From assembly GCA_964544085.1 (NCBI GenBank), contig CAZIZT010000027.1:33676-97675 (forward strand): DNA of 64,000 nt, given 5' to 3'. Position 1 is the first letter of the stretch. Every line of letters begins with the position of its first letter. Of this stretch, positions 12,284 to 37,787 are shown in pieces. The translations under genes and the position numbers were made by a program. The notes beneath the pieces are model-generated. The model searched no databases and was not told where the DNA came from. It saw nothing but the letters and a program-made list of their open reading frames with translations. Source of the stretch: an uncultured Desulfurellales bacterium (GTDB lineage Bacteria > Campylobacterota_A > Desulfurellia > Desulfurellales > Hippeaceae).

Positions 12284-12299
12284 GGCTCTTCTTCAACCC

Positions 12300-17526: not shown

Positions 17527-19500
17527 ATGCGGGTTAAAGGCATCATTGCGTTGGTTGCGGTTTCGCTCCTGTTGCTTGCGCCCTATAGTAGAGGTACAAC
17601 ACAGGAGGTGAACCTTGGTGAGGTTGTAGTGCAGGCTACTAAGTCCCAAACGAAGTTGAAGGATGTGCCTGCAACTGTGTATGTTATTACAAACAAACAG
17701 ATCAAGGAGAGCACAGACGAAAGGAACATCGGTGATGTACTCTGGAGCGTTCCGGGTGTTTTCAGCCAGGATAAGAGGCACACCGATGCAAATGTTCTCT
17801 ATTTCAGGGGGGTTACCCTGCACGATCATGTTACCTATGGTATTTTGGTGCTTATTGATGGTATTCCTATCAACAATGCTGATGGATGGGTCGATTTTGA
17901 AGGCATCGATTTCAATAATGTAAAACGCATAGAGGTCATAAAGGGGCCTGTCTCTGCCCTTTATGGGCCTGATGGTACAGTGGGTGTAATAAACATAGTC
18001 ACGAAGAACCCACCCAAAAAACTCACAATGAGAGCATCAGCATCCTATGGATCCTACAGAACATGGAAATTCACAACATCCGCAGGTAAAACATTCGGTA
18101 AGGTTGGCGTGATGCTTGATGCTATGCGCTACGGTTCAAGGGGATACAGACCGCGCAACACGAACTACGAAAGCAAGTTCTCAAGCAAAGTGACAGGCGA
18201 TTTGGGCAAACTCGGTAGATTGCTGTTCACATTTGATTATGTCAATTCCGATAAGGATATTCCGGGGCCGCTGAATGAAGCCCAGTTTCTTGCCCGTGAG
18301 ACCGTATCCACGAGAAAGTTTGCCGGTTCCAGCATGGATTTATATAGGGCGGGAATCGGATACAAGAAGGCATGGGATACAGACTCTCTCCACCTTAATC
18401 TTTATTACCATGGCAAGGTTTATGATGGTGGCTACAGTGACAGCTGGGTTGAGCACTATTATCTGAACCTGTTTGGCGCAGAAGCAAGATTTATCCAGCT
18501 GTTCAATCTGGGTTCTCTTGCTAACAAGCTGACTGTAGGAACAAGTGGATACACAGAGAGCGGTACAACGAAGATCTGGGCGAGGAATAGTGACGGAAGT
18601 AAGGGAAGGTTTTTGAGCAAGGGATACGGTCTCTACAGGGCACTGGGTTTGTACGGTCAGGATCAGATAACAATTATCAAACCACTTAAAGCAACGTTTG
18701 GTTTGAGATACGATCAGATTTATTACAAATACGAAGAGAAGTATCCGGGTTCCTCTGAGGACACAAAAACGTTGCACGCGTGGAGTCCAAAATTCGGTCT
18801 GACTTATGAGTTTGTGAAAAACCACGTTCTCTATCTGGATATAGGAAGAGGTTTTATACCTCCGACGTTACGCGAGATGTTCACATCAAGGTATGCCAAC
18901 AAGGATCTGAAACCTCAGTACCTAACCGATTATGAGACGGGCGTGAGGGGTTTAATAGCCTCTGTTTTGAGATACCAGCTTGCGGTCTACTACATGAAGT
19001 TCAAGGATCAGATCCAGTATGATCCAAACACGGATACTTACGAGAATATAGGCGACACGAAGCATAAAGGTGTTGAGCTTTCATTGAGCTATAGGATACT
19101 CAAGCACATTACATTAAGTGGTAATTACAGTTTCAATATCTCTCGCTTTGACAATGACCCGGTATACGGTAACAACTTTGTCAAAAAGGCACCAAAACAC
19201 CAGCTTGCTTTGGGAGCACTCTATTCCAACAATGGTTTCTCTTTCGGTGTTTGGCTTCGAAGGATCTGGAAATACTACATGGACAATGAAAACACCAAGT
19301 ATTACGGCGGCCACACTGTCGTAAACGCTAAGGTCTCTTACAAGGTTAAGAATTTCTTTGCGTCTCTGTATGTGAACAACCTGCTGGATAACAACTATGC
19401 CACATGGGCTACAAGATATCACTTCGGAAGAAGAACGGTCGATTATTACTATCCAGGCTGGCCAGTTAACATTATGTTTACCCTCGGTATGAAATTCTAA
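17527..19500 (+). CDS. TonB-dependent outer-membrane receptor (copy 1)
   Basis: 657 aa with a signal peptide, a plug domain (VVVQATK..., IEVIKGPVSALYG), a beta-barrel and a C-terminal aromatic residue (...TLGMKF). Confidence 0.88.
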   Translation: MRVKGIIALVAVSLLLLAPYSRGTTQEVNLGEVVVQATKSQTKLKDVPATVYVITNKQIKESTDERNIGDVLWSVPGVFSQDKRHTDANVLYFRGVTLHDHVTYGILVLIDGIPINNADGWVDFEGIDFNNVKRIEVIKGPVSALYGPDGTVGVINIVTKNPPKKLTMRASASYGSYRTWKFTTSAGKTFGKVGVMLDAMRYGSRGYRPRNTNYESKFSSKVTGDLGKLGRLLFTFDYVNSDKDIPGPLNEAQFLARETVSTRKFAGSSMDLYRAGIGYKKAWDTDSLHLNLYYHGKVYDGGYSDSWVEHYYLNLFGAEARFIQLFNLGSLANKLTVGTSGYTESGTTKIWARNSDGSKGRFLSKGYGLYRALGLYGQDQITIIKPLKATFGLRYDQIYYKYEEKYPGSSEDTKTLHAWSPKFGLTYEFVKNHVLYLDIGRGFIPPTLREMFTSRYANKDLKPQYLTDYETGVRGLIASVLRYQLAVYYMKFKDQIQYDPNTDTYENIGDTKHKGVELSLSYRILKHITLSGNYSFNISRFDNDPVYGNNFVKKAPKHQLALGALYSNNGFSFGVWLRRIWKYYMDNENTKYYGGHTVVNAKVSYKVKNFFASLYVNNLLDNNYATWATRYHFGRRTVDYYYPGWPVNIMFTLGMKF

Positions 19501-19521
19501 CAAGTTAGAGAGGAAATCTAA

Positions 19522-21510
19522 ATGGATTTGAAAAAACTTATTGTGAGCAGTGCGACGGCATGCGCACTGCTTTTGTCCTGTAGTGTTGTCTCGAAAGCGG
19601 CTCAGCCTGATGATGTGAATCTTGGTGAGGTGGTAGTGCAAGCTACCAAATCGGAAACAAAGCTTAAAGATGTACCAGCTACCGTGTATATAGTGACGGG
19701 CAAAGATATAAAACAGACCTCTGACACAAGGAATCTCGGAGATATACTCTGGGAAGTTCCGGGTATATTTGGTGAGGATAAAAGACATACGGATTCCAAT
19801 GTAATCTCATTCAGGGGTGTCACACTGCACGATTGGGTAACCTATGGCATACTTGTTCTTGTGGATGGAATACCGCTCAACGATGCAGATGGAAGAGTGG
19901 ATTTTGAGGGTATAAACCTTGATAATGTAAAACGCATCGAAGTCATAAAGGGGCCTGTATCTGCGCTTTACGGACCAAATGGCACGGTGGGTGTCATCAA
20001 TATAGTCACGAAGAATCCGCCCAAGAAACTTACTGGAAAGGCTTACGCTTCTTACGGTTCTTACAAAACGTGGAAGTTGTACACAGAGGGTGGAAAGAGC
20101 TTTAAAAATGTTGGCGTTTGGTTAAGTGCTATGAGATACGGCAGCCAGGGTTATAGACCAAGAAACTCCTATTTCGAGGATAAGCTCAGCGGTAAAGTAA
20201 CCGGCGATTTGGGCGATGCAGGCCACATAACGAGTGACTTGTACTACGGTCACGTCAGCAGAGAAACCCCTGGTCCACTGAATGAGGAGGAGTTCGAGAA
20301 CCAAGAAAGGATAGCCACAAGAGAATCTTCTTCTTCTGAGATGGATCTTTACAGACTCGGTGTGGCATACAGAAAAGCGTGGGATGCAAGTTCGATTCAT
20401 CTAAGTGCTTATTTCCATAGAAGAAAAAGGGATTCGCAATGGACCACTGGCATCACCAATGATCACATAAACACTTTTGGTAGCGAGGCAAGGTTTATCC
20501 AGAAGTACACGTTGTTTAATTTGCAGGACGCCTTTACCGTTGGGGCAAGCCTCATGACCGAGGGTGGTGTCTCCAAGTACTGGATGAGAAATAGAGATGG
20601 CAGTAAAGGCACACAAACGAGGGATGGATATTCAAGACAAACAAATTACGGTGTGTATGCGCAGAATGTATTAGCGTTGGCAAGACCCTTAAAGGTTACG
20701 CTTGGCGTGAGGTACGACAGAGTTCATTTCAAGTATGACGATAGAATCAAATCTAACGGTGACGATTCGGGCACGCGCACCATGGATGCCTGGAGTCCAA
20801 AGGTCGGCATTACGTATGAAGCATTTAAGGGTCAAACCTTTTACATCAACATAGGTAAAGGTTTCGTGCCTCCGACTCTTTACAGGCTTTTTTCCGGTAG
20901 GTATGCCAATAAGGATTTGAAGCCCCAGTATTTGACCGATTACGAGATTGGAGTAAGGGGCAATATTGCAACGAAACTTCACTATGAAATGGCTGTTTAT
21001 TACATGAAATTCAAGGATCAAATTCAATATGATCCTGTGACAGAGAGATATGAGAATATCGGTAATACAAAGCACAAAGGCTTCGAGGTATCTCTGAAGT
21101 ATAGATTCTTGAAGCACTTTATTTTGCGTGGTAATTACAGTTTCAATATCTCTCGCTTTGACAATGACCCGGTCTACGGTAACAACTTTGTCAAAAAGGC
21201 ACCCAAACACATGATGGGGCTGGGAGTTACCTACATTAACCGTGGTTTAACGTTGAGTATGTGGATGAGAAAGGTCTGGAAATACTACATGGACAATGAA
21301 AACACCAAGTATTACGGCGGATACACACTTTTGAACGCCAAGGTTTCCTATCATTGGCACAGGGTATTCGCATCCTTGTATGTGAACAACCTGCTGGACA
21401 ACAACTATGCCACATGGGCTACGAGGTACACAAGAAGAGGTAGAACAACAGACTACTATTTCCCGGGTTGGCCATTGAACGTAATGTTCACGCTGGGTAT
21501 GAAATTTTAG
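19522..21510 (+). CDS. TonB-dependent outer-membrane receptor (copy 2, tandem paralogue)
   Basis: 662 aa, same architecture as copy 1 and the same C-terminus TLGMKF. Starts 21 nt after copy 1. Confidence 0.88.
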   Translation: MDLKKLIVSSATACALLLSCSVVSKAAQPDDVNLGEVVVQATKSETKLKDVPATVYIVTGKDIKQTSDTRNLGDILWEVPGIFGEDKRHTDSNVISFRGVTLHDWVTYGILVLVDGIPLNDADGRVDFEGINLDNVKRIEVIKGPVSALYGPNGTVGVINIVTKNPPKKLTGKAYASYGSYKTWKLYTEGGKSFKNVGVWLSAMRYGSQGYRPRNSYFEDKLSGKVTGDLGDAGHITSDLYYGHVSRETPGPLNEEEFENQERIATRESSSSEMDLYRLGVAYRKAWDASSIHLSAYFHRRKRDSQWTTGITNDHINTFGSEARFIQKYTLFNLQDAFTVGASLMTEGGVSKYWMRNRDGSKGTQTRDGYSRQTNYGVYAQNVLALARPLKVTLGVRYDRVHFKYDDRIKSNGDDSGTRTMDAWSPKVGITYEAFKGQTFYINIGKGFVPPTLYRLFSGRYANKDLKPQYLTDYEIGVRGNIATKLHYEMAVYYMKFKDQIQYDPVTERYENIGNTKHKGFEVSLKYRFLKHFILRGNYSFNISRFDNDPVYGNNFVKKAPKHMMGLGVTYINRGLTLSMWMRKVWKYYMDNENTKYYGGYTLLNAKVSYHWHRVFASLYVNNLLDNNYATWATRYTRRGRTTDYYFPGWPLNVMFTLGMKF

Positions 21511-21566
21511 CTTGTCTGAGGGCTCCCCCATTTCTCCTAAGGGGGAGTCCATCTCTGGAGGATGCA

Positions 21567-22406
21567 ATGAGATACGTTATATTTGCCTTGTTGTTTATCC
21601 TTCTGCAGAACGTGCATGCCTTTGGTAATGAACTGTGGTTTGAGTCAGCAAGGGGTATGAACATGGGTGCTCGCACCTATGCAATATATTTTGGTAAGTT
21701 CCCGTCTCACAGGATGCAACCGGGGGCTCTAAATGGCGTACATGTTTTGTTGAAGGACTATACAAGTCACATAAGGCCGCTGAAGATCAAAAAGAGGAGA
21801 AGGGCCTATTGCGTAAGGGTTCCTGCAATTTTCAACGGCAATTACACGCTTATTGCCATGAAACGTGAGAAAAACAAAAACGTTTCTACCGTTTATGTTG
21901 CAAAGGTAAACTTCTATGTTAGGCATCAAAGAGACGGAAAAATCACCAGACCCAATGACGACATGGCTGTTTTTGGCCCACAGGTGCCCTTTGAGCTGAT
22001 CAGATTAAGGAGTCGAAGGGGTGAGCCGTTTTTCCTGTCACGAACAGGCCACAGGATACGTTTTCGAGTCTACTTTCACGGTAAGCCTGTTTCTGGTGCT
22101 GTCGTTGTTGTAACTACAAGAAGTGGCTGGAGCAAACGCATGATTAGTGATAAAAACGGAGAAGTTGAGTTTACAGCTATTCAGGATAGATTTCCTGCAT
22201 CAAAGTACAGGTGGAGACCGGAGATATACCTTGTAAGTGCCTTTTATACGAACAGTGGCACTCGATATGTTGCTACTTATCCGATTTATACGTACATATC
22301 GCCTGATGCATGGCGAAGCTATGCTGCAGGTATCTTCATACTGCTTGTGGTTATGCTTGCTGTAGGTTTGTGGGCATACTTCAAACGCCGGGAAAGCCGG
22401 TTTTAG
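21567..22406 (+). CDS. DUF4198-like (COG5266 CbiK-like) periplasmic protein with signal peptide and C-terminal TM anchor
   Basis: Start chosen at ATG 21567 (GGAGGA RBS, signal peptide MRYVIFALLFILLQNVHA). The segment FRVYFHGKPVSGAVVVVTTRSGW...DKNGEVEFTA resembles the transthyretin-like core of DUF4198. There is a hydrophobic C-terminal helix. Confidence 0.6.
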   Translation: MRYVIFALLFILLQNVHAFGNELWFESARGMNMGARTYAIYFGKFPSHRMQPGALNGVHVLLKDYTSHIRPLKIKKRRRAYCVRVPAIFNGNYTLIAMKREKNKNVSTVYVAKVNFYVRHQRDGKITRPNDDMAVFGPQVPFELIRLRSRRGEPFFLSRTGHRIRFRVYFHGKPVSGAVVVVTTRSGWSKRMISDKNGEVEFTAIQDRFPASKYRWRPEIYLVSAFYTNSGTRYVATYPIYTYISPDAWRSYAAGIFILLVVMLAVGLWAYFKRRESRF

Positions 22407-22415
22407 GGGGAATCT

Positions 22416-23378
22416 ATGAAGGTTAGAAACTTGCGATGGTTAATTCAGTTCATAGCCTTTGCCGTTCTGGTTTACGGTGGTTTGGTAGCTATAGATCTTG
22501 GCAATAAGCTTCCAACCTTCGCATGCAGGTATGTGGATTCAAGAGGCGGTATGTGTTTTTTGTTTCCGTTTCAGATGCTCCTTGAACACACGCCGTTTCA
22601 AGCCTATTTCATGCATCATGGGTACAGGGCGATCCGCCTGCTCGAATACTTTGGCACCTTTTTTGTGCTTGCAATTATTCTTAACAAGGCATGGTGCGGC
22701 TGGCTGTGTCCATTTGGTTTTCTGCAGGATCTTGCTTCAGAACTGAGAAGTGCACTCAATATTCGTTACTCTTTTATGAAATGGTCCACAAGGGACAGGC
22801 TGCAGTGGGTCAAGTACGGTTTCCTGTTCCTGTTTGTTTTCATTTTGCCGCTTATGATGGCAAATCATCTCTTTTCACCGACAGTTACCAGGGATTTGAG
22901 CAATCCTTTCTGTCAGATATGCCCGGCACGGTTGATACTGCCTATAGCAGAGGGCAACTTCAGCCAGATATACCTTGATACTTCAAGTGGCGTTAAGTTT
23001 GTTCTTACTTCGCTTGCACTATTAATTGCCGGCATTAGTGTGATTGGTGCGTTTTTCTACAAGCGATTTGTATGCCGGTTCTGCCCTATGAATGCTTTTC
23101 TTTCGCTGTTTGATAGGGTAGGTTTTATGCAGCTTAAAAAGGATCCTCAGAAATGCACCAAATGTGGTAACTGCTATCGTGTTTGTCCTATGGAGATAAG
23201 AGAGATCTATCTTGAAGATAAGAAGAGTAATGTGCTTAATCAGGATTGTATGCTCTGTCTGAGATGTATAGAATCCTGCCCGGAGGATGGTGCGCTTAAG
23301 GCAACCTACCTTGGCAAAGCCATCTTTACGTCGTCGAGCAAGGGATTTTTTGAAAGGCAGAATGCCGATAAAAAGTAA
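22416..23378 (+). CDS. Membrane-bound polyferredoxin, NapH/MauN-like (4Fe-4S binding)
   Basis: 320 aa with several TM helices. Has CGWLCPFG, CQICP and CRFCP motifs, plus a C-terminal 2x[4Fe-4S] domain (CTKCGNCYRVCP, CMLCLRCIESCP). Confidence 0.75.
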   Translation: MKVRNLRWLIQFIAFAVLVYGGLVAIDLGNKLPTFACRYVDSRGGMCFLFPFQMLLEHTPFQAYFMHHGYRAIRLLEYFGTFFVLAIILNKAWCGWLCPFGFLQDLASELRSALNIRYSFMKWSTRDRLQWVKYGFLFLFVFILPLMMANHLFSPTVTRDLSNPFCQICPARLILPIAEGNFSQIYLDTSSGVKFVLTSLALLIAGISVIGAFFYKRFVCRFCPMNAFLSLFDRVGFMQLKKDPQKCTKCGNCYRVCPMEIREIYLEDKKSNVLNQDCMLCLRCIESCPEDGALKATYLGKAIFTSSSKGFFERQNADKK

Positions 23379-23396
23379 CTGAACGGAGGAAAAAAG

Positions 23397-24614: not shown

Positions 24615-24615
24615 T

Positions 24616-25413
24616 ATGGGATACTTCGTTGGTGTAGACATCGGCACCACATCTACTAAGATTGCAATCATCGACGATTCTTGCAAGCTTTTAAACCATC
24701 TTGTTGTTTTATCGGGAGCTGATTTCAAACGGTCTGCGGATGAGGCATTCGAGACACTCCTTGAGAAGACAAACGTTAAAGAAAGCGAGGTTGAATACAT
24801 TGTCTCAACGGGCTATGGACGCAAGCTCGTTGATTTTGCGGATGAGTCTATAAGCGAGATATCAGCCAACGCCAAGGGCGCAAGTACCATAGGCAGACTA
24901 AATGGTGTTTCCATCAGGACGATAATAGACATTGGAGGTCAGGATAGCAAGGTTATCTCGCTTGACGAAAACGGTAAGGTAAACAACTTTACAATGAACG
25001 ATAAATGTGCAGCAGGTACAGGTAGATTTCTTGAGTCGATGGCACGTGTTCTTGAGGTTAACATAAGCAACTTTGGAGAGTTATTGCTCCAATCCAACCA
25101 GCCCGTGAAGATTAACAGCACCTGCACCGTTTTTGCAGAAACGGAGGTTATCTCCCATCTTGCAAGGGGTCAGAGGAAGGAGGACATAGTTGCAGGGATT
25201 CACCGCTCCATAGTTCAAAGGATAATGGCACTGGGCAAACGTGTAGGCATCAGGGAGGTTGTACTTCTGAGTGGTGGACCTGCAAAGAATGAGGGCCTTG
25301 TTAAGACCATGAAAGAGATGCTGGGTATGGAGGTGTTTGTTCCTGAGCATCCGCAGGTGGTGACAGCATTTGGCGCTGCGATAATTGCAAAGGAAAGAAG
25401 TGGAGATGAGTAG
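24616..25413 (+). CDS. BcrA/BadF/HgdC-type ATPase (activase / ATP-dependent electron-transfer component)
   Basis: Start at ATG 24616 (AGGAGG RBS). Has an ASKHA-fold N-terminus (GVDIGTTSTKIAI) and the cluster-bridging cysteine contexts NDKCAAGTGRF and NSTCTVFAE typical of HgdC-like activases. Confidence 0.85.
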   Translation: MGYFVGVDIGTTSTKIAIIDDSCKLLNHLVVLSGADFKRSADEAFETLLEKTNVKESEVEYIVSTGYGRKLVDFADESISEISANAKGASTIGRLNGVSIRTIIDIGGQDSKVISLDENGKVNNFTMNDKCAAGTGRFLESMARVLEVNISNFGELLLQSNQPVKINSTCTVFAETEVISHLARGQRKEDIVAGIHRSIVQRIMALGKRVGIREVVLLSGGPAKNEGLVKTMKEMLGMEVFVPEHPQVVTAFGAAIIAKERSGDE

Positions 25414-26056: not shown

Positions 26057-26066
26057 GGAGGCGAAC

Positions 26067-27323
26067 GTGAGCAGGCTAATCTGTGTTGTTTTAATGGTCG
26101 TTATCTCATCGGTTGTTTCTGTAAATGTGTTTGCCACAACCAGAGTTGTGAAAAGGAAATATATCACGGCTTATTACAACAGCAAAGGAGAACTCACACG
26201 GGTGGATATCGATTCAAACCATAACGGCAGAATGGACACGGTTAAGTACATCAGCAAAGGTAGGGTGTATAAGGTTAAAAGGGACGCCAACGGAGATGGT
26301 CGCTTTGATACCTACATCTTTTTCGAAGACGGCAAGGTTTCAATGATAAAGAAAGACACAAACGGTGACGGTAAACTGGATACGTATATCTATTTCAGGA
26401 AAGGCCATCTCTACAAAACGGAAAAGGATACCAATCATGATGGCAGAATTGATTACGTTCTTGTTCATAAGGGTCACGGTTTAGCACTGGAAAAGATAGA
26501 TACCAACCACGATGGGAAGTTTGACACCGTGAACTTCTATAGACACAGAAGGCTCTATAAATGTGTGCAAAACGGTAAGGTTGTCCTCTACGGCAAAAAC
26601 GGCTTACCATTAAAAATAAAAGATGGCAAAGCACATTACGTCTATAAAAATGGGAGACTTAGTAAGGTGGAATTTAAATATAGAGTGATTGCCTATAAAG
26701 ATGGAAAGAAGAGTTTTGAAAAGATAGATACCAACCACGACGGGAAGTTCGATCTGTTTGTCTATTACCGCAATGGTACAGTGTATAAGGTTGAGAAGGA
26801 TACAAATTACGATGGACGTATAGATGCTGTTGAAACCATAGCCGGAAATACGAGAAAGCTAAGGGTAGATAAGAATCACAATGGCTTTTTCAATATAACA
26901 CTGACGTTTAAGAACGGAAAGCTTATACAAAAGGAGTTTTTCAAGAAGGGTTGTAGTCTGCCTTATCGAATTGAAAGCAAGACCAAGATAATGGTGGATA
27001 GTAACTGTGACGGCAAATATGAAAAGATTGAAAAGATAAGACCTGATCGCATAGATATTCTCGTTGATGCCAATCATGACGGGAAGTTTGACTGTGAGTA
27101 TGTGTATTCGCCAAAGCACAAACTTGTTGAGGTGTTGAAAGACACCAACCATGATGGAAAATTCGACACATTCATAACATACAACGGCAAAGAGTGCTAC
27201 ACTATCAGCCGGGATAGTGACTTCAACGGCATGGTGGATCTTTGGAAGAAATACAAGGATGGAAAGCTCGTCTCTGTGGAGAGGGATCTAAATGGAGACG
27301 GCAAGCCCGACATTACATACTAA
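26067..27323 (+). CDS. Secreted repeat protein with about 13 DxNxDG (EF-hand/FG-GAP-like) putative cation-binding loops
   Basis: GTG start after AAGGAGG and signal peptide VSRLICVVLMVVISSVVSVNVFA. The unit (E/K)KDTNHDGK(F/I)D-x-hYY-x-G-x-hYK repeats with a period of about 24 aa. Confidence 0.7.
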   Translation: MSRLICVVLMVVISSVVSVNVFATTRVVKRKYITAYYNSKGELTRVDIDSNHNGRMDTVKYISKGRVYKVKRDANGDGRFDTYIFFEDGKVSMIKKDTNGDGKLDTYIYFRKGHLYKTEKDTNHDGRIDYVLVHKGHGLALEKIDTNHDGKFDTVNFYRHRRLYKCVQNGKVVLYGKNGLPLKIKDGKAHYVYKNGRLSKVEFKYRVIAYKDGKKSFEKIDTNHDGKFDLFVYYRNGTVYKVEKDTNYDGRIDAVETIAGNTRKLRVDKNHNGFFNITLTFKNGKLIQKEFFKKGCSLPYRIESKTKIMVDSNCDGKYEKIEKIRPDRIDILVDANHDGKFDCEYVYSPKHKLVEVLKDTNHDGKFDTFITYNGKECYTISRDSDFNGMVDLWKKYKDGKLVSVERDLNGDGKPDITY

Positions 27324-27345
27324 GCTTGTGAAGAGGTGTTCTTAA

Positions 27346-27987
27346 ATGTGGGATCTTATACAGAAATCTGGCGTCTTTGGTTACCTTATTATTGTCTGCT
27401 CGGTTTTTTCTGTTGCAATCATACTGGAGCGTTACTTTGCATTTAGAAGGATAAAACTGAAGGATCCGGATTTTATCATTCGTATAGTTGAAGCGCTCAA
27501 CAAAGGTGAAATAGAAAAACTGCTCCCGGAATTGGAGAGGTCAAAGTCTCCTGTTGTGAGGATAGTTTATGAAATTATAACAAGGCATGTAAGCTCGGGC
27601 AATGGCAGGGAATCAAAAGAAGCAGTGGAGAGGACAATACACTTCATTGCTGAAAGAGAAGTGAGAGAGATGGAGAAATACCTACCGTCTCTTGCATCCA
27701 TTGCGCAGGTTTCTCCCTTGCTTGGTCTGCTTGGTACGGTGGTTGGAATGATCAAGGCTTTCATGGTTATCCAGTCCTATGGCGGTAGGGTCAATGCGCA
27801 GGTACTCGCAGGGGGTATCTGGGAAGCTATGCTCACAACAGCAATGGGCCTGATAGTTGCTATTCCCTCTATGCTTGCCTACAACTACTTCAATGCACGA
27901 ATAAACAAAACAATAGGTTTAATGGATGAGATAAGCAACGAACTTATCCATGCGCTGGAGAAGGCAAACTACTTCAAGGAGAGCTGA
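27346..27987 (+). CDS. exbB: MotA/TolQ/ExbB proton-channel protein
   Basis: 213 aa with 3 TM helices and a conserved C-terminal channel region (LGLLGTVVGMI...GGIWEAMLTTA). Followed by exbD and tonB. Confidence 0.88.
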   Translation: MWDLIQKSGVFGYLIIVCSVFSVAIILERYFAFRRIKLKDPDFIIRIVEALNKGEIEKLLPELERSKSPVVRIVYEIITRHVSSGNGRESKEAVERTIHFIAEREVREMEKYLPSLASIAQVSPLLGLLGTVVGMIKAFMVIQSYGGRVNAQVLAGGIWEAMLTTAMGLIVAIPSMLAYNYFNARINKTIGLMDEISNELIHALEKANYFKES

Positions 27988-27989
27988 TC

Positions 27990-28400
27990 ATGATTAACAT
28001 AAAAAGAAGGGCAACCTCCAGCGAAGGCGCCAATATCAATCTCACGCCATTGATAGATATTGTTTTTCTGCTGCTTATATTCTTTATGTTGACGGCAAAT
28101 TTTGTCGTCAATGAGGGAATAAAAATAAAGTTACCCGAGACCAAAGCTCGTTCAGAGTTAGCGAAGAAGCCTATTGTTGTGTATTTGACAAAGGACAACA
28201 GAATATACTTCAAGGGAAGGTTCGTCACGTTGGACCAATTGAAGACTCTTTTACCCCAACAGATAGCTGAGAATGTGACAAAAACGGTTGTTCTTAAGTC
28301 TGATAAGAACGCTAAGGTTGATATAGCTGTGAAGATCCTCGATGTAGCCAAACTATCAGGCGCAAAGAAGTTTATAATCGCCACCCGGAAAGAGGAATGA
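27990..28400 (+). CDS. exbD: Biopolymer transport protein ExbD/TolR
   Basis: 136 aa. N-terminal INLTPLIDIVFLLLIFFM is the ExbD/TolR signature helix. Confidence 0.88.
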   Translation: MINIKRRATSSEGANINLTPLIDIVFLLLIFFMLTANFVVNEGIKIKLPETKARSELAKKPIVVYLTKDNRIYFKGRFVTLDQLKTLLPQQIAENVTKTVVLKSDKNAKVDIAVKILDVAKLSGAKKFIIATRKEE

Positions 28401-29119
28401 GTACATCAGAAAAGAGATTCCTGCTCATTCTTTTCTTTTCAATTGTTTTACATGCGGGCATACTGGTGGTTTTCAGTTTATCGTTTCAGAAGCCCGACGA
28501 GAATGAGAACAGGGTAGAGATCAATCTGAATAACTACCAGTTGCCCCGTGATACACCCATAGAACAGCCTGTGGAACCGGAGAAGATGACGCGATTAAAT
28601 TTTAACCAGATAGAGATACCTAAAGACAATGTTCAACCTGAAAAGATAAAACGTGTAAAGAGGATCCTGAAGGAGCGTGTGACCGATTACAGCGAATTGG
28701 CGAAATTGCCTGAAAATATCCCACAAAACTATCCCTTGCCGCAGCCGGTGGTGACACATAAGCCAGCAAAAAAGCCTCTACGACACCCTGCACCAGCAGT
28801 TGCTGGAAATCCGCATTTGCTTTCTATATACTTGCGAAGGGTTAGAGGTATCATCGAGTCTCACAAGATGTACCCTCTCTCTGCGAAAGAGAATGGGGTG
28901 GAAGGTAAGGTGCTTTTGGAGTTCACTCTGCTTAGGAACGGAAATATTGCATCGTTGAGAATACTTCGCTCATCTGGTTCGGATGCACTCGATAGGGCAG
29001 CTAAACGAGCTATACTTGATTCTGTTCCCTTTCCACCGTTTCCTGCCGGGGTAAAGCGCAAAAGGTTGCATGTGAAGCTTTACATAGTATTTAAACTCGA
29101 AGAAGAAGACGAATGGTGA
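28397..29119 (+). CDS. tonB: Energy transducer TonB
   Basis: 240 aa with an N-terminal anchor, a Pro-rich spacer (PQPVVTHKPAKKPLRHPAP) and a C-terminal TonB domain (YPLSAKENGVEGKVLLEFTL...). Confidence 0.85.
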   Translation: MSTSEKRFLLILFFSIVLHAGILVVFSLSFQKPDENENRVEINLNNYQLPRDTPIEQPVEPEKMTRLNFNQIEIPKDNVQPEKIKRVKRILKERVTDYSELAKLPENIPQNYPLPQPVVTHKPAKKPLRHPAPAVAGNPHLLSIYLRRVRGIIESHKMYPLSAKENGVEGKVLLEFTLLRNGNIASLRILRSSGSDALDRAAKRAILDSVPFPPFPAGVKRKRLHVKLYIVFKLEEEDEW

Positions 29120-30486
29120 AAAGGGTTTTCTCTTTCGTATTACTTGTGGTTATCCTAACTGCATGTGTTTCTACACACCAGAAGAATTTGAAAGTTCATC
29201 TGCAGAGCCGGTATGTTAATAAGACTGAGCCGGCTGGTGAGTTTGGGAGTAGCTGGTGGCGCTCGTTCAAAAGCGATGAACTCAATAGCCTCATACAAAG
29301 GGCTCTTGCATCCAACTACGACTTAGCCATCGCTCTAACGAAACTCAAAGAGGCTGTTCTTGGCTACAGGATGAGCAAGAAGCGGTTACTACCTGAAGTG
29401 AACACTACTTTCAGCTACTCTCGTACCAGAAGGAATCAAAGCGGCTTTAAGAGTACATCCAGGAGTGCATCCCTCGGGTTTGCCGCAAACTATGAGGTTG
29501 ATCTCTGGAGCAAGATTAGAAACGGTATCGACGTCTATAGACTTGAGAAGGAAAAGGCTTGTTACTATTACGATACAGCCATGATATCGCTTTTATCGAC
29601 ATTGACAGACAACTGGTTGGTGTGTGTCTCGGTAAACGAGAAGCTTCCAATACTGAAAAAGCGCATGAAAATATTGAGCAAGAAGGTAAAACTTTTGGGC
29701 TATGGTTACAAGGAGGGGACATACACCTTGAGCGAATATCTGTTGGCAAGGGATAATCTGGAAAGACTCAAAACCCAGCTTGCGCAGTTGAAGGCAGATT
29801 ACAGAACCGCACTCGGGCACATAAAGACAATACTCGGCTTAAAACAGAACGATGATTTGACTGTTAGAACCAGCAAATTGCCGAATATACTGGCTCCACT
29901 GGACATAGGTAAACCGTATATGCTGCTTGAGCGCAGACCCGATATACGCAAAGCTTACGCAAACCTTAAGGAAGCTTATCTGAACGTGAAGATAGCAAAA
30001 GCAGAAAGACTGCCGCAATTTTCACTTTCTGCTCAGCTTAGCTACTCAACCATAAAGGACAGCATAGTGGATCTTATTAACAATTGGTTTTACTCATTGG
30101 CAGCCCGCATTGCGTATGTTTTGGTAGATTTCAATAGAGCTAAGTTGAATGAGAAAATAAAGCAGGTTGCTACTAATGGTGCGATGCTTGAGTATAAGAA
30201 AACGGTTTTGAAAGCCGTCGAAGAGGTTGAGGATGCTTACATTCGTCTTCGGGTGGCAAGAAAGAATGTGAATTCACTAAAAAAGACAATTGCAAACGCA
30301 AAGATAAGACTCGGTTTAGCGAGGCAGCGATATCTATCAGGGCAATCGGATGTGATAGCGTATCTGTCTGCTCTGGATTCGCTACTGGCCTATCGGATGC
30401 AACTTGTGGACTTGCAGCAGGTCTATCTGACAGACCTGGTTAACCTCTACCAAGCCGCAGGGGGGATATATTGCAATGAAGAATAA
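29113..30486 (+). CDS. Efflux outer-membrane factor lipoprotein (NodT/TolC family)
   Basis: 457 aa with lipobox LTAC near the N-terminus and two OEP-type repeats. Overlaps tonB by 7 nt and the adaptor gene by 11 nt. Confidence 0.8.
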   Translation: MVKRVFSFVLLVVILTACVSTHQKNLKVHLQSRYVNKTEPAGEFGSSWWRSFKSDELNSLIQRALASNYDLAIALTKLKEAVLGYRMSKKRLLPEVNTTFSYSRTRRNQSGFKSTSRSASLGFAANYEVDLWSKIRNGIDVYRLEKEKACYYYDTAMISLLSTLTDNWLVCVSVNEKLPILKKRMKILSKKVKLLGYGYKEGTYTLSEYLLARDNLERLKTQLAQLKADYRTALGHIKTILGLKQNDDLTVRTSKLPNILAPLDIGKPYMLLERRPDIRKAYANLKEAYLNVKIAKAERLPQFSLSAQLSYSTIKDSIVDLINNWFYSLAARIAYVLVDFNRAKLNEKIKQVATNGAMLEYKKTVLKAVEEVEDAYIRLRVARKNVNSLKKTIANAKIRLGLARQRYLSGQSDVIAYLSALDSLLAYRMQLVDLQQVYLTDLVNLYQAAGGIYCNEE

Positions 30487-31630
30487 GATAGTTTCTGTAA
30501 TTTTGATTATCATGATTGTAGCAGCCGGTGTGTATGTAAGCGATTATTTGAAATCGCACAGGCGCAAGCCTCACAGGTGGAAACGCAGGGCAATGCCAGT
30601 TTATGTGGAAACAAAGAAAGCTGTGCGTGTAAATATCCGCTACAGAATAGAGGGCTTTGGCAATGTTGAAGCAATGAGAGATGTTACCCTTGTGCCTGAG
30701 GTATCGGGCAAGGTGATATGGGTGAATAGCAAGTTTTATCCGGGGGGATACTTCAAAAAGGGTGAGGTTATATTGAAAATTGACCCTACCGATTACAGGC
30801 TGGATCTGATAAAGAAAAAGGCTGCTCTTGAATCGTTACGGGAGGATTTAAAGATAGAGCAGGGCAAAAGAAGGGCAGCTTTTAAGGAGTATATGGCAGC
30901 AAAGGGCGTTATAAGAGGTGGTTTTGACAACAGCTCTTTGTATTTAATTCTAAGAGAGCCCTATTTAAAGAAGCTTCAGGATTCGATTAAGCGCGCAGAG
31001 GCAGATCTCAAACTGGCAGAGATCAGGCTTTCGAAAACGGTTGTAAAGGCGCCATTTGATTGTTATGTAGTTGCTCGGTATGTGAACCTTGGTTCGTACC
31101 TTTCTGCGGCAAGCCGAATTGCAGAGGTGGTATACTCGAACGCTTACTACATAAAAGCCTTCATACCTGTGGAAGAATTGAAGCAGCTGGGTAATTACCT
31201 GCACGATCCGGTGCGGGTCTATTTTTCAAAGAATGATGTATATTCTGCACATATCATCTCTATTTTGCCAGATGTTGACAAGAAAGGGTTGCTTGCGGGT
31301 TTGTTGCTTGTAGTAAAGGGTTTGGATGATCCTCTTTCTGGTTTAAAGCTGAACAATTATGCAAAGGTTGTGATAGAGGGTAAGAAGCTGGAGGATGTTA
31401 CGAGGATACCAGTAAGAGCCCTTAGAGAAAACTCACGCGTCTGGCTATACGTAAACGGTAGGCTAAAAATCAAGACGATCAGTGTGGTGTTCAGGGATAA
31501 GCATTTCGCTTACACATACGATGTTAAACCCGGTAGTGATGTGATAGTCTCTGAAATTGCTACCCCTGTTGAAAATATGAGACTTTACAAGGGCACAGAT
31601 GACAAGGATCATAAAGTTTTTTATAGATAA
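30476..31630 (+). CDS. Efflux RND periplasmic adaptor (HlyD/MFP family)
   Basis: 384 aa with an N-terminal TM helix, a coiled-coil hairpin and barrel-sandwich hybrid features. Lies between the OMF and RND genes. Confidence 0.8.
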   Translation: MKNKIVSVILIIMIVAAGVYVSDYLKSHRRKPHRWKRRAMPVYVETKKAVRVNIRYRIEGFGNVEAMRDVTLVPEVSGKVIWVNSKFYPGGYFKKGEVILKIDPTDYRLDLIKKKAALESLREDLKIEQGKRRAAFKEYMAAKGVIRGGFDNSSLYLILREPYLKKLQDSIKRAEADLKLAEIRLSKTVVKAPFDCYVVARYVNLGSYLSAASRIAEVVYSNAYYIKAFIPVEELKQLGNYLHDPVRVYFSKNDVYSAHIISILPDVDKKGLLAGLLLVVKGLDDPLSGLKLNNYAKVVIEGKKLEDVTRIPVRALRENSRVWLYVNGRLKIKTISVVFRDKHFAYTYDVKPGSDVIVSEIATPVENMRLYKGTDDKDHKVFYR

Positions 31631-34600
31631 TCCGGTTGCTGCAAACATATTGATGATATTCCTCCTGGTTGGTGGATTTTATTACTCCTACCATATAAAG
31701 CAGGAGGTCTTTCCCGAGTACACAATAGATGAGGTTGTAGTCCAGGTTTCATATCCTGGTGCCACACCCAAGGAGATAGAGAACGGTATTATTTTGCCAA
31801 TAGAAGAGGCTATAGATGGTCTTGAGGGCATCGACAAGGTTATTTCCACAGCCCGGGAAGGGGTGGGAACAGTTACCATCGAAGCGGTAAATGGAGCGGA
31901 TATAAACCAGCTTTACAACGATGTAAAGAATGCTGTTGACAGAATCACCACGTTTCCTGCCGATGCGGAGAAACCCACAATCTATATACCTACAAGAAAA
32001 AGAGCGGTGATAACAATGATCCTCTATGGGGATGTACCGTATTATCAGTTGATGGGGCTCGCCCAGCAGTACAAGGATAGATTGCTTAACTTCAAGAACA
32101 TAACCAACGTTGAGCTCTCAGGCAACAAGCCTTATCAGATAACCATTAGTGTTTCAGAGAACGCGCTGAAAAAGTATTCCCTGACTTTCTCGGACATTGC
32201 GAGGAAAATACGCGATTTTGATACTGAGCTCGGTGGGGGCAGGATACGAACAAGGGGCGGTGATATTCTAATAAAAACAGGTACACGAAAGGAATATGGC
32301 AGTCAGCTTGCAAATATACCAATCATAACCACATCCGGTGGCGGCGTTGTAAAACTGAAAGATATTGCGAAGATAGACGACGGCTTTGAGGATACGGACA
32401 CCTATCTGAAATACAATGGTAAAAGAGCTATTGGCATAACTGTATACAGGGTTGGTGACCAGAAACCTGTTGAGATAGCCGATACGGTTAAGGCATTTAT
32501 TGCCAGGATACGGGATGAATTACCCCCCGGAATCGGTGTCGATTATGTTAGTGACTACTCGCGCATATTCAAACAGCGTAAGGAATTGTTGCTGAAAAAC
32601 GCCAAATTTGGTCTTGTGCTCGTACTTATACTGCTTGCGCTCTTTCTTGAACTTAGGCTTGCATTTTGGGTTATGCTCGGTATACCCGTATCGTTCCTTG
32701 GTTCAATGCTGATATTCCCAATGTTTGGTGTCACAATAAACATGATCTCTATGTTTGCTTTCATTATTTGTCTCGGTATTGTTGTGGATGATGCGATAGT
32801 GGTGGGAGAGAACATCTACTCCTATAGGGAGAAGGGTCTGAGTTTCAAAGAGGCTGCACTGGTGGGCACAAGAGAGGTTTTTGTGCCTGTGGTTTTTAGC
32901 GTTTTGACGAATATGGTGGCGTTTCTCCCGATGTATTTTGTGCCAGGTACGGCAGGAAAGATATTCAGGATAATACCGGTTATTGTCTGTTCTGTTTTTA
33001 CTATATCACTCCTTGAGAGTCTGTTTATTTTGCCTTCTCATATTGCACATCAGAGGGAAAACCCGATCCTGCCGATTAGGGCAATAAACAGGGTTCAGGG
33101 AAAGATTAGCAAGATTATTCACAGGTTAATAAATCTGCTATATACGCCGGTTTTGAAGCTTGCCTTGAGGTTTAGGTATGTGGTTTTCGTGCTTGCAGCT
33201 GTAATACTGTATCTTGCTTTTGTATTTGTTGAGACAGGCAAAATAGGTATTGTCTACTTCCCACGCATTGAGAGGAGTCATGCTACGGTTAGATTCCAGC
33301 TGCCACCGGAGAGCTCTGTATATGACACATTGAAGATAGCCGATATGCTTGTCCAGAGAGCAAAACGTATAATCAAGGAACATGGTGGTAGTAAGCTTGC
33401 ACAGGGTATATTGACGCGTATAGACGGCAATTCAGGTGACATAAGGGTTTATCTGACACCACCGGGTGTTAGGCCTATAAGCACATCCCAATTCACCAGA
33501 CTGTGGCGCAGGGCGTCCAGGGGTATACCGGGTTTGGAGAAAATACGCTTCTCAGCGGATTTTGGTGGACCGGGAGCTGGTGCTTCTCTGACAATAGAGC
33601 TCTCTCATCGGAATACCGCTGTACTTACGCAGGCATGCAAGCAGCTTGCGAATTACCTTAAGACCTTCAAGAACGTATCCGACATAGATGATGGCACTTC
33701 GGCTGGCAAGTACCAGTTTACGCTTACATTGAACAGTCTCGGCAGGGCGCTTGGACTTGATCCTTCCTATATTGCCACTCAACTGCGCGGCGCTTATTAT
33801 GGCATAGAGGCTAAGAAGTTTATCCGTCAAGGCAACGAGGTAAAGATAAAGGTAACACTTCCAGAGCAGCAGAGAAGCCTTGTTTATTATTTCGATCATT
33901 TCATGCTCACGCTTCCAGATGGTACCAGGATACCTCTTAAAGAGGTGGTTAACGTAGAAAAGGGTAGATCCTACGTAACGATAACGCGCGAGGATTTCAG
34001 ACGGGTTATGTACGTGACAGCCAACGTGACACCCGAGAGGGACACAAGGAAGATTGTGGAAAACCTGATGAGGGACTTTCTTCCAAAATTAAAGCAACAC
34101 TATCCTGGGCTCAGCTACTCCTTCGGTGGAAGACAGTCGAGGCTGAAAGAAAGCATGAGTGTTCTTACAAAAGGCTTGCTTGTATCGGTTCTTGTTATAT
34201 TTACAATGCTTGCCATACCATTTAAAAGCTATATCCAGCCTATCATTATTATGACAGCTATACCATTTGGCATAATTGGAGCTATAATAGGTCACGTTAT
34301 CATGGGTTACGATATAAGCATCGTTAGTATGTTTGGAATTGTAGCACTGTGTGGTGTTGTAATCAACGATTCTCTTGTTTTGATAGACTTTGCTAATAGA
34401 ATAAGGCGAACACTCAACAAGAGTCACTACGAGGCTGTGTTTGAAGCAGGAATAAAGCGCTTCAGGCCTATAATTCTCACGACACTGACCACCTTCTTCG
34501 GGCTTATGCCCATGATTTTTGAACCATCAACTCAAGCTCGATTTCTTGTGCCTATGGCTATATCGCTGGGTTTCGGTATCCTGTTTTCGACCTTTATTAT

Positions 34601-34673
34601 TCTGATACTGGTGCCTGGTTTGTATCTCATAGTTGAGGATATCGCGAACCTGTTTGGGTTCACGACAAAATAA
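31599..34673 (+). CDS. RND efflux transporter permease
   Basis: 1024 aa RND architecture with the TM4 motif GIVVDDAIVVGENI. Overlaps the adaptor gene by 32 nt. Confidence 0.9.
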   Translation: MTRIIKFFIDNPVAANILMIFLLVGGFYYSYHIKQEVFPEYTIDEVVVQVSYPGATPKEIENGIILPIEEAIDGLEGIDKVISTAREGVGTVTIEAVNGADINQLYNDVKNAVDRITTFPADAEKPTIYIPTRKRAVITMILYGDVPYYQLMGLAQQYKDRLLNFKNITNVELSGNKPYQITISVSENALKKYSLTFSDIARKIRDFDTELGGGRIRTRGGDILIKTGTRKEYGSQLANIPIITTSGGGVVKLKDIAKIDDGFEDTDTYLKYNGKRAIGITVYRVGDQKPVEIADTVKAFIARIRDELPPGIGVDYVSDYSRIFKQRKELLLKNAKFGLVLVLILLALFLELRLAFWVMLGIPVSFLGSMLIFPMFGVTINMISMFAFIICLGIVVDDAIVVGENIYSYREKGLSFKEAALVGTREVFVPVVFSVLTNMVAFLPMYFVPGTAGKIFRIIPVIVCSVFTISLLESLFILPSHIAHQRENPILPIRAINRVQGKISKIIHRLINLLYTPVLKLALRFRYVVFVLAAVILYLAFVFVETGKIGIVYFPRIERSHATVRFQLPPESSVYDTLKIADMLVQRAKRIIKEHGGSKLAQGILTRIDGNSGDIRVYLTPPGVRPISTSQFTRLWRRASRGIPGLEKIRFSADFGGPGAGASLTIELSHRNTAVLTQACKQLANYLKTFKNVSDIDDGTSAGKYQFTLTLNSLGRALGLDPSYIATQLRGAYYGIEAKKFIRQGNEVKIKVTLPEQQRSLVYYFDHFMLTLPDGTRIPLKEVVNVEKGRSYVTITREDFRRVMYVTANVTPERDTRKIVENLMRDFLPKLKQHYPGLSYSFGGRQSRLKESMSVLTKGLLVSVLVIFTMLAIPFKSYIQPIIIMTAIPFGIIGAIIGHVIMGYDISIVSMFGIVALCGVVINDSLVLIDFANRIRRTLNKSHYEAVFEAGIKRFRPIILTTLTTFFGLMPMIFEPSTQARFLVPMAISLGFGILFSTFIILILVPGLYLIVEDIANLFGFTTK

Positions 34674-35995: not shown

Positions 35996-35998
35996 GCA

Positions 35999-37723: not shown

Positions 37724-37787
37724 CACCAATTTGCGTATCATCGGCTAACAACAGATTATAGTCGCAATAGAACAGCCGTTGAGCCAC

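Follow-up and report, generated by a model that had tools for sequence, protein, structure and literature searches.

A conserved gene array joining TonB-dependent receptors to a predicted double-cubane cluster protein in an uncultured Desulfurellales bacterium

The window analysed here is a stretch of 64,000 nucleotides from an uncultured Desulfurellales bacterium (NCBI GenBank assembly GCA_964544085.1, contig CAZIZT010000027.1, positions 33,676 to 97,675), and the system in question is an array of 14 genes, all on the plus strand, that fills positions 17527-34673 of the window. It encodes two TonB-dependent receptors (TBDRs), a DUF4198-fold periplasmic protein, a NapH-like polyferredoxin, a double-cubane cluster protein (DCCP) with a predicted activase, a DsbD_2-family membrane protein, a repeat protein, an ExbB-ExbD-TonB complex and a tripartite exporter made up of an outer-membrane factor (OMF), a periplasmic adaptor (membrane fusion protein, MFP) and a resistance-nodulation-division (RND) permease. 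Comparison of related loci shows that these parts form an operon-like unit with a conserved gene set and order, which in some relatives is placed under the control of B12 riboswitches. The array may represent one conserved envelope system for the reductive acquisition of a tightly complexed metal or metal cofactor, a reading held with a little less than even confidence. Such a system would be of a known kind, in which TonB-dependent import is followed by reductive metal release and sometimes by ligand recycling, and it is the reductase module that appears to be new in this role. Full-text literature searches for papers linking DCCP, NapH or DUF4198 with TonB or B12 riboswitches did not turn up such a system.

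Layout and conservation of the array

The features are listed below. Family assignments are based on Pfam and NCBIfam scores against curated cutoffs. The gene starts are those called on the source metagenome contig, including 21567 for the DUF4198-fold protein, 24616 for the activase, 25406 for the DsbD_2 protein and 26067 for the repeat protein.

17192..17526, presumed promoter and 5′ untranslated region, 335 nt between the divergent prmA gene and the gene for TBDR1
17351-17366, perfect 7-2-7 palindrome TGTGCATAGATGCACA in the 5′ region of the array
17527..19500, plus strand, TonB-dependent receptor 1 (TBDR1), 657 aa; Plug 80.5 bits, barrel 168 bits
19522..21510, plus strand, TonB-dependent receptor 2 (TBDR2), 662 aa; Plug 81.5 bits, barrel 184 bits
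21567..22406, plus strand, DUF4198-fold periplasmic protein, 279 aa; predicted signal peptide and C-terminal membrane anchor
22416..23378, plus strand, NapH-like polyferredoxin, 320 aa; two Fer4_5 matches, two CxxCxxCxxxCP motifs, four transmembrane (TM) helices
23397..24614, plus strand, double-cubane cluster protein (DCCP), 405 aa; HGD-D; NF040772 352.0 bits against a cutoff of 350
24616..25413, plus strand, ATP-dependent electron-transfer activase (archerase, DCCP-R-like), 265 aa; TIGR00241 268 bits, BcrAD_BadFG 214 bits
25406..26056, plus strand, DsbD_2-family membrane protein, 216 aa; about six TM helices; PF13386 71 bits against 24.9
26067..27323, plus strand, exported repeat protein, 418 aa; 13 DxNxDG motifs; weak GEVED and Lsa25.6 family matches
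27346..27987, plus strand, ExbB/TolQ-family proton channel; MotA_ExbB 111 bits; 81% identity to its counterpart in the related locus L082
27990..28400, plus strand, ExbD; PF02472 117.5 bits
28397..29119, plus strand, TonB; TonB_C 61 bits; TIGR01352 64.6 bits, above the cutoff of 27.1; one N-terminal TM helix by hydropathy
29113..30486, plus strand, outer-membrane factor (NodT-like); OEP in two stretches, 141 bits; TIGR01845 193 bits against a cutoff of 210
30476..31630, plus strand, RND periplasmic adaptor (MFP); TIGR01730 111.5 bits, above the cutoff of 94.9
31599..34673, plus strand, RND permease; ACR_tran 558 bits

The listing of open reading frames (ORFs) agrees with the initial annotation in that all 14 genes are co-directional at these coordinates, and the widest gap within the array measures 56 nt, the upper limit given there. 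With the contig starts, the junctions from the first gene to the last are +21, +56, +9, +18, +1, -8, +10, +22, +2, -4, -7, -11 and -32 nt. The number of overlaps is five with these starts and at least seven with the longest-ORF starts, so the six overlaps (1-32 nt) counted previously fall inside the start-codon uncertainty. The upstream flank, with PrmA and PurL, lies on the minus strand, as does the PaaK-like ligase gene downstream, which is convergent with the array, its stop lying 5 nt from that of the RND permease. Since both flanks are on the opposite strand, the array is sharply delimited. Promoter and terminator scans of the array gave counts at chance level, and no intergenic terminator was found within it. 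No sign of a link between the array and a virus, plasmid or mobile element was seen, no search having been aimed at such elements.

A set of 170 related loci, numbered here with the prefix L, was screened by tblastn with the window proteins. An alignment of DCCPs was used to scan genomes for these loci and one of NapH-like proteins to scan metagenomes, and further loci came from looking up named homologues. A genome scan with a single DCCP query yielded no confirmed relatives, and the alignment query was used thereafter. In L082 (GCA_054042015.1) the same 13 genes are present in the same order with a single TBDR, at identities ranging from 46% (DsbD_2) to 87% (NapH-like), while the upstream flank is wholly different, containing flagellin, MCP and dynamin-like GTPase genes. 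Since the order is kept in a different flank, the whole block, including the repeat protein, ExbB-ExbD-TonB and OMF-MFP-RND, travels together, and its co-direction is more than chance. The full array, with its RND genes, is thus not confined to one genome.

Judged by homology, the conserved core, which is found in at least five phyla, consists of a TBDR, an anchored protein of the DUF4198 fold, the NapH-like protein, the DCCP, the activase and the DsbD_2 protein. The NapH-like gene lies directly beside the DCCP gene in 56 loci. Of the diderm-type loci, 19 have 6 kb or more of sequence on both sides; all of these have a TBDR (19/19), accompanied by a DUF4198-like protein in 15, a DsbD_2 protein in 16 and an activase in 16. 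The core is kept in L002-L017, L088-L109, L117 and L134. Its carriers in the Desulfobacterota are strain NaphS2, Desulfobotulus mexicanus, Desulfosarcina and Desulfobulbus; others belong to the Campylobacterota (Sulfurimonas hongkongensis, S. diazotrophicus), the Alpha- and Gammaproteobacteria, the Planctomycetota and the Spirochaetes. The neighbourhood comparison proposed with the initial annotation therefore comes out positive: dozens of loci combine TBDRs with DUF4198-like, NapH-like, DCCP, activase and DsbD_2 genes. Near one related locus, L007 of a Desulfobacterales metagenome-assembled genome (MAG), there is a group II intron domain (RF02005, 19035-19308, 99 bits).

That TBDR and TonB genes, DCCP and activase genes and RND genes are merely adjacent and co-directional by chance is extremely unlikely. 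A chance juxtaposition would be in keeping with the general abundance of RND pumps and TBDRs, with the second RND gene of the window (516-3614) and with the absence of the RND gene from most related loci. It would not account for the order kept in L082, for the core kept in dozens of loci across phyla, or for the RND gene embedded between the activase and TonB genes in L103, L107 and L117.

Outside the diderm-type loci the core is found in reduced forms. Archaea and Gram-positives such as Acetobacterium have NapH-DCCP-activase without a TBDR, some with a DsbD_2 gene, and for distant DCCPs (at most 37% identity) the activase gene is the only gene of the array that adjoins. A bacterial class without a DCCP, seen repeatedly in metagenomes (L114, L116, L120, L124, L125 and L126), combines a TBDR with a NapH-DsbD_2 pair, its NapH-like proteins being 31-35% identical to that of the window. 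In L120, the one locus of this class checked with Pfam, a DUF4198 gene is located between the TBDR and NapH genes, and TonB and ExbD genes follow. From this distribution the NapH-like/DsbD_2 pair looks like the part most tightly tied to TonB-dependent import, with the DCCP and activase as a cytoplasmic add-on.

The redox module, the receptors and the exporter

DCCPs are widespread in anaerobes and combine a nitrogenase-like cofactor with ATP-driven electron injection. Pfam and NCBIfam uphold the family assignments made in the initial annotation and sharpen one of them: by sequence criteria the HgdB/BcrB-like gene product is a DCCP with its own predicted ATP-dependent activase, which changes what is meant by the redox module of this array. 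The protein passes NF040772 ("double-cubane-cluster-containing anaerobic reductase") marginally, the next family being HadC at 134 bits. Its best solved relatives are the Carboxydothermus hydrogenoformans DCCP structures 7YYL and 6ENO (233 bits), with BzdN at 111 bits, and its nearest DCCP relatives are only about 45% identical. The seven-Cys motif, C53-X18-C72-X18-C91-X29-C121-X164-C286-X33-C320-X32-C353, aligns with the Cys residues of 7YYL; two of its spacings are 1-2 residues shorter than in the published DCCP motif, CX19CX18-19CX29CX166-170CX32-34CX32C (10.1101/2022.07.06.499078). The activase gene starts 1 nt past the DCCP stop. MbdQ, HadI and HgdC are the best solved relatives of the activase, and DCCP-R (7YYL_E) scores 149 bits. 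In passing NF040772, in its seven cluster Cys residues and in the archerase-type activase encoded directly downstream, the window DCCP resembles the Carboxydothermus DCCP/DCCP-R pair (6ENO, 7YYL), which consists of two soluble proteins whose physiological substrate and partners are not known (PMC7317905). Unlike the Carboxydothermus gene, to whose product its own is related at a modest level (233 bits), the window gene is fixed beside NapH-like, DsbD_2, TBDR and TonB genes.

The NapH-like polyferredoxin scores far below the NapH/MauN cutoffs (TIGR02163, 87.5 against 213 bits; NapH equivalog, 82.5 against 234), even though it has the NapH architecture of four hydrophobic segments, C94xxxC98P, C220xxC223P and two [4Fe-4S] motifs. 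All of its 16 Cys residues are kept in 25-29 of 29 orthologues, including archaeal ones. Eight of them belong to the two ferredoxin-type [4Fe-4S] motifs of the C-terminal domain. The motifs C94xxxC98P and C220xxC223P come after TM2 and TM4, on the same side of the membrane as the ferredoxin domain, while C37, C47 and C166xxC169 sit in two loops on the opposite side. We infer that the N-terminus and the ferredoxin domain are cytoplasmic, as in E. coli NapH, which would place C37, C47, C166 and C169 on the outer face. The NapH/NosH/CcoG family, in which CcoG is a metal (cupric) reductase, shares the four TM helices, the CX3CP-type inner-face motifs and the two C-terminal [4Fe-4S] motifs. The window protein stands out in having a DCCP as its partner in place of NapG, NapC or Nos proteins, and in two additional pairs of conserved Cys residues in loops predicted to face outward. 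Neither in the window nor in the related loci were partner genes of the Nap, Mau or Nos type (NapG, NapA and others) found. A Foldseek comparison of the predicted model with the PDB returned only noise (E >1), with no solved structure matching.

The DsbD_2 protein has C29xxxC33 in TM1 and P143-C144-x-P146 in TM4, both of which are invariant in eight orthologues. Its family is small, with 219 representatives at E<=1e-3, and both Cys motifs are present in 112 of 150 family representatives. There is a weak match to the ArsG permease, and a profile of the orthologues found no solved homologue. No thioredoxin-fold gene was detected by Pfam within the 14 genes. According to the initial annotation the array has no canonical inner-membrane importer and no regulator. 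The Pfam and NCBIfam scan of the 14 genes agrees in finding no ABC importer, substrate-binding protein or regulator domain; the statement is too strong for importers in general, since the DsbD_2 protein is a candidate inner-membrane carrier. The adjacent repeat protein is present in L082 at 53% identity and absent from the other loci screened, and by this distribution it is a lineage-specific accessory.

The TonB-dependent transport set is complete, comprising receptors with a plug and a 22-strand barrel, ExbB, ExbD and TonB. Both receptors have a TonB-box-like GEVVVQATKS at the mature N-terminus, and since they are 62-64% identical, the two genes form a tandem duplicate. The single TBDR of L082 is 73% identical to TBDR2 and nearer to it than to TBDR1. 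The next-nearest TBDRs (38-43% identity) likewise head NapH-DCCP loci (L104, L099, L101). In L172, a third relative, the receptor gene is split into ORFs of 103 and 556 aa. The nearest solved structures to TBDR1 are YncD and PqqU, and TBDR1 does not reach the cutoff of any named NCBIfam TBDR family. Orthology between the TBDRs of different loci was rejected, their identity being only 22-28%. The cargo may thus vary while the processing module stays constant.

The DUF4198-fold protein matches the Pfam family (PF10670) weakly, at 25.6 bits against a threshold of 34 and over profile positions 140-194 only, and a profile comparison with a canonical DUF4198 member gave a probability of 73%. Its AF2 model (pLDDT 74), which was built from a three-sequence alignment, the homologue search having returned three sequences only, matches Zcp of N. 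gonorrhoeae, the only solved DUF4198 protein (9MHN, 9MHL and 9MHJ; Foldseek E 3e-10, probability 1.00, TM-score 0.55-0.64); the next matches have TM-scores of about 0.2. The model thus confirms that the predicted structure shares the three-layer beta-sheet fold of Zcp. From hydropathy the protein is predicted to start with a signal peptide and to have a TM helix spanning ORF residues 287-305. The predicted membrane anchor and the sub-threshold Pfam score distinguish the protein from Zcp. DUF4198 proteins are periplasmic metal binders, and Zcp binds Zn, Co or Cu (PMC12663993). Operons in which DUF4198 proteins occur with PepSY proteins and flavin reductases in aerobic proteobacteria have been proposed to reduce Fe(III) in the periplasm (PMC11870441). 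Like the window, they place a DUF4198-fold protein beside a TBDR and a membrane reductase, and they have been proposed to serve reductive metal uptake; in the window an anaerobic Fe-S/ATP system would take the place of the flavin or PepSY protein as reductase. Two local variations were seen in relatives. In one subclade (L117, 7597-9978; L107, 5823-8153) the DUF4198-like protein begins with an additional, fused Fer4_5 membrane domain and measures 776-793 aa, and in L016 a radical-SAM gene (6466-7581) separates the riboswitch-controlled TBDR gene from the DUF4198-like gene.

The three genes of the tripartite RND set are adjacent, with overlaps of 11 nt (OMF/MFP) and 32 nt (MFP/RND). The best NCBIfam match of the permease is RND_permease_2 (466 bits, against 290 for CusA/CzcA), both far below cutoff, and its best solved relatives, MdtB, MdtF, AcrB and CmeB, are all multidrug pumps. 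The permease therefore appears to resemble multidrug/amphiphile (HAE1) pumps more than heavy-metal pumps, while diverging from both. A heavy-metal (HME) pump was considered and not adopted because of these NCBIfam scores and solved relatives. An RND gene accompanies the core in the window, L082, L005, L017, L103, L107 and L117, in three arrangements: OMF-MFP-RND after TonB (window, L082), OMF-MFP-RND upstream of the core and followed by an ECF sigma gene (L005), and a lone RND permease between activase and TonB (L103, L107, L117). In the L117/L107 subclade this permease has no adjoining adaptor or outer-membrane factor. A CusB-like RND set in L017 is divergent, and in L003 a MacA/MacB pump comes after the DsbD_2 gene. 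Five of 27 core loci of at least 12 kb contain an RND gene, against none of 36 DCCP-only controls (Fisher p=0.011), the control being a rough one that includes monoderms. On these counts the link between exporter and core is real but facultative, and the exporter stands outside the universal core. The earlier proposal that a chelator or a product is exported gains some support from the recurrence of RND and MacB pumps and is qualified by their facultative presence. The broader proposal of a self-contained envelope system combining import with reductive transformation is a reasonable reading given the conservation of the array.

Cobalamin riboswitches and the nature of the cargo

The 335-nt region upstream of TBDR1 (17192..17526) contains no Rfam family above threshold. 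Its palindrome could be an operator; in an alignment with the upstream region of L082 no conserved element was found, and the palindrome is not kept there. In seven of 37 diderm-type loci (L004, L011, L012, L013, L014, L016 and L090) a cobalamin riboswitch (RF00174, 72-129 bits) is located directly upstream of the operon. Strain NaphS2 (L004) has two, the first before TBDR-DUF4198-like-NapH-DCCP-activase-DsbD_2 and the second before TBDR-CobN-like-DUF2162-ExbB-DUF2149. The planctomycete locus L090 has tandem riboswitches before TBDR-DUF4430-DUF4198-like-NapH-DCCP-CobN-like-ExbB-ExbD-TonB-DUF2149. A CobN/BtuS-like chelatase with DUF2149, DUF2162 or DUF4430 adjoins the module in L004, L011 and L090, a riboswitch-controlled CbiK cobalt chelatase adjoins the operon in L013, and a CbiZ cobinamide amidohydrolase does so in L012. 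In the Desulfobulbus MAG of L016, two tandem cobalamin riboswitches (12916-13437; 108 and 129 bits) are located before the genes for methylmalonyl-CoA mutase subunits and MeaB, so that a B12 riboswitch there precedes a B12-dependent enzyme. In a neighbour-joining tree of the NapH-like proteins (no support values), six riboswitch loci form one clade, and the window/L082 pair has L090 as its sister (55% identity). Through this one locus the B12 link reaches the window's own clade. No cobalamin riboswitch was found in the three loci of the DCCP-less class that were scanned.

The initial annotation set the locus apart from B12 uptake operons. For the window this stands: no TBDR of the BtuB model, no 5′ cobalamin riboswitch and, among the 14 genes, no BtuFCD importer was found, and Pfam and NCBIfam detected no CobN-like (HmuS/BtuS) chelatase, DUF2149 or DUF2162 gene. 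It does not extend to the homologous loci behind cobalamin riboswitches, some of them beside CobN/BtuS-, CbiK- or CbiZ-type genes.

The riboswitches could also be read in the opposite sense. The TBDR would then deliver a metabolite for which the NapH-DCCP pair serves as a B12-independent alternative or as an electron-accepting reductase, with the riboswitch repressing the pair when B12 is plentiful, as for metE or nrd. NapH-family proteins serve respiratory reductases, and NapH-DCCP-activase sets occur in archaea and acetogens that have no TBDR. B12 riboswitches are known to control B12-independent isoenzymes as well as corrinoid biosynthesis and the uptake of corrinoids and cobalt (PMC7689651). 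This sparing or respiratory role nevertheless has a slim chance of being correct, since the riboswitch loci begin with TBDR genes and have CobN-like, CbiK and CbiZ genes beside them, as is typical of supply and not of sparing, and no catabolic genes are conserved around the core.

Among the known systems close to the array are loci of the hmu/BtuS type (HmuYRSTUV; HmuS or BtuS with ExbB, ExbD and DUF2149), which like the window combine a TBDR with a private ExbB-ExbD-TonB complex. The CobN-like BtuS and HmuS proteins of such TonB loci are periplasmic dechelatases for metalloporphyrin salvage: after import of a metal-tetrapyrrole, a reaction that depends on a reductant extracts the metal on the periplasmic side of the inner membrane (PMC12583661, PMC6460266). 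Heme dechelation by HmuS is NADH-dependent, and the route of the electrons to heme is unknown (PMC12583661). Unlike the window, hmu loci have no DCCP, activase, NapH-like or DsbD_2 genes. In L004, L011 and L090 the two kinds of locus are physically joined behind B12 riboswitches, and the NapH-DCCP module may point to the missing reductant supply of HmuS/BtuS-type dechelatases (PMC12583661).

The same chemistry could be directed at iron, with ferric chelates or heme taken up and Fe(II) freed by reduction, in which case the array would be the anaerobe's counterpart of the DUF4198/PepSY/reductase operons and of hmu (HmuS). Some ferric siderophores are of low potential and would justify an ATP-driven reductant. 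The best NCBIfam matches of the window TBDRs are siderophore and hemin subfamilies, all sub-cutoff. Further precedent comes from the proposed periplasmic Fe(III) reduction by DUF4198 operons (PMC11870441) and from the action of the CobN-like HmuS and BtuS on heme iron (PMC12583661, PMC6460266). On the other side, no Fur-box-like site was found in 19 upstream regions, those of the window and of 18 related operons (6-9 mismatches in 19 positions, the best site of the window having 7), and in relatives no regulators could be recognised other than cobalamin riboswitches, two-component systems and ECF sigma factors. The heme-receptor motifs FRAP and NPNL are absent from the window TBDRs. An iron cargo is accordingly considered improbable, having no positive support beyond the precedent of the DUF4198 operons (PMC11870441).

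Proposed mechanism, its alternatives and the neighbouring genes

In the proposed mechanism, the TBDRs, energised by the ExbB-ExbD-TonB complex of the cluster, would bring a metal-organic complex into the periplasm. In the relatives this cargo would be a corrinoid or a cobalt complex; in the lineage of the window it may be another metal chelate. The anchored DUF4198-fold protein would hold the complex at the inner membrane. The activase would spend ATP to push low-potential electrons into the [8Fe-9S] cluster of the DCCP, from which they would reach the outer face of the NapH-like protein by way of its two ferredoxin clusters and conserved Cys pairs; there the metal centre would be reduced and labilised. 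The DsbD_2 protein would then carry the released soft metal inward by means of its CxxxC and PCxP thiols, or would supply a thiol reductant. The OMF-MFP-RND pump would expel the spent organic ligand from the periplasm, as in pyoverdine recycling by PvdRT-OpmQ.

The pyoverdine pathway of P. aeruginosa, with import by FpvA, periplasmic reduction by FpvGHJK and recycling by PvdRT-OpmQ, has the same three-step logic of TonB import, reductive release at the inner membrane and tripartite efflux of the apo-ligand. It differs from the window in its MacB-type ABC pump, in its unrelated reductase and in having no ATP-driven Fe-S reductase, so that only the generic TBDR, TonB and pump parts are homologous. 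The NapH-like protein is placed as the membrane-proximal element because a DCCP-less subclass exists and because all 16 Cys residues are conserved, two pairs of them in predicted outward loops. These two features speak for an outward flow of electrons, while the small-molecule site of DCCPs speaks for the inverted polarity. That all the steps hold together, with the DCCP and activase powering outward reduction by the NapH-like protein of a cargo delivered by the TBDRs (corrinoids or cobalt complexes in the riboswitch-controlled relatives), the metal entering through DsbD_2 and the ligand being pumped out, is doubtful as a complete scheme.

Several observations weigh against the proposed mechanism. 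To our knowledge, outward electron transfer by a NapH-type protein has never been demonstrated. The topology of the NapH-like protein was assigned from hydropathy and the positive-inside rule alone, and its AF2 model is of medium quality (pLDDT 69). The small-molecule active site that DCCPs display in vitro suits a terminal reductase better than a relay, and in L089 and L091 (Sulfurimonas) and L090 (Planctomycetota) NapH-DCCP occurs without an adjacent activase gene. Among ten orthologues of the DUF4198-fold protein no His or Cys is conserved, and the metal-binding His triad of Zcp (H29, H31, H142; PMC12663993) is absent. As for the cargo, the window TBDRs fail the BtuB models (TIGR01779, 151 and 131 against 599.7; PRK10641, 132 and 104 against 836), and with only 22-28% identity between the TBDRs of different loci it may differ by lineage. 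No cobalamin riboswitch was detected upstream of the window array even at E<=10, nor in L082 and about 25 other members of its clade, and the visible regulators of the relatives without riboswitches are two-component systems or ECF sigma factors. The RND pump, finally, is absent from most related loci.

In a rival reading the substrate is cytoplasmic. A small organometallic or metalloid compound, or an intact corrinoid, would enter by DsbD_2, and the DCCP would be the terminal ATP-driven reductase, for example in the reduction of cob(II) to cob(I) or in ligand removal. The NapH-like protein would feed electrons from the quinol or ferredoxin pool and anchor the complex, and the RND pump would remove a toxic product. 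The cob(II)/cob(I) couple requires a very low potential, which an ATP-driven reductase would suit and which fits the B12 riboswitches. The invariant thiol motifs of DsbD_2 and its weak ArsG-permease match point the same way. DCCPs reduce small molecules at the [8Fe-9S] site in vitro, their physiological substrate being unknown (PMC7317905), and they correlate with an organometallic/selenoprotein transport locus (10.1101/2022.07.06.499078), while HgdB-like and activase genes associate with selenium genes (PMC5322559). This earlier work on other loci shows that DCCPs recurrently accompany metal or metalloid transport. The cytoplasmic scheme offers no explanation for the conserved Cys pairs of the NapH-like protein that are predicted to face outward; the DCCP-less subclass still keeps TBDR-DUF4198-NapH-DsbD_2, and DsbD_2, with about six TM helices, is small for a corrinoid carrier. 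It is rated as unlikely, though it is the main rival of the outward-electron scheme.

Whatever the direction of the electrons, the array and about 50 related loci now place one clade of DCCPs in a fixed genetic context of importer, periplasmic protein, polyferredoxin and a candidate carrier with thiol motifs, which would be the first physiological context for these proteins. Its carriers include the cultured Desulfobotulus mexicanus, Sulfurimonas hongkongensis, S. diazotrophicus and strain NaphS2, in which the role of the DCCP becomes testable. If the outward-electron scheme is true, it would be the first physiological role of double-cubane enzymes and the first ATP-driven outward electron transfer for nutrient acquisition, and it would provide anaerobes with a route of cobalt or corrinoid supply independent of BtuFCD. 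No cobalt-specific TBDR has been confirmed so far (PMC7689651). Should the cargo be cobalt or a corrinoid, the array would represent a new acquisition route, relevant to the B12 economy of sulfidic sediments in which trace metals are locked up.

The rest of the window contains several other gene sets. The second RND permease, at the start of the window (516-3614, plus strand), is a canonical one (ACR_tran 1066 bits). Positions 5194-14365 contain a lactate/glycolate-type utilisation set (LUD-CCG Fe-S proteins and an FAD-linked oxidase), a TRAP transporter and a GntR regulator. Downstream of the array, on the minus strand (34679-44270), are genes for the PaaK-like AMP ligase, a 450-aa protein annotated as unknown, an MFS_3 (EntS-like) exporter, a GNAT-domain protein, a LuxC-PaaK-like fusion (907 aa) and LuxE, which together look like a cluster that makes a small molecule (acyl or aldehyde) and encodes an exporter of its own. 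A molybdenum-cofactor (Moco) riboswitch (RF01055, 47773-47902, plus strand, 87 bits) precedes genes for an ABC ATPase, an SBP_bac_11 binding protein and a permease (47892-50483), which probably form a molybdate or tungstate transporter.

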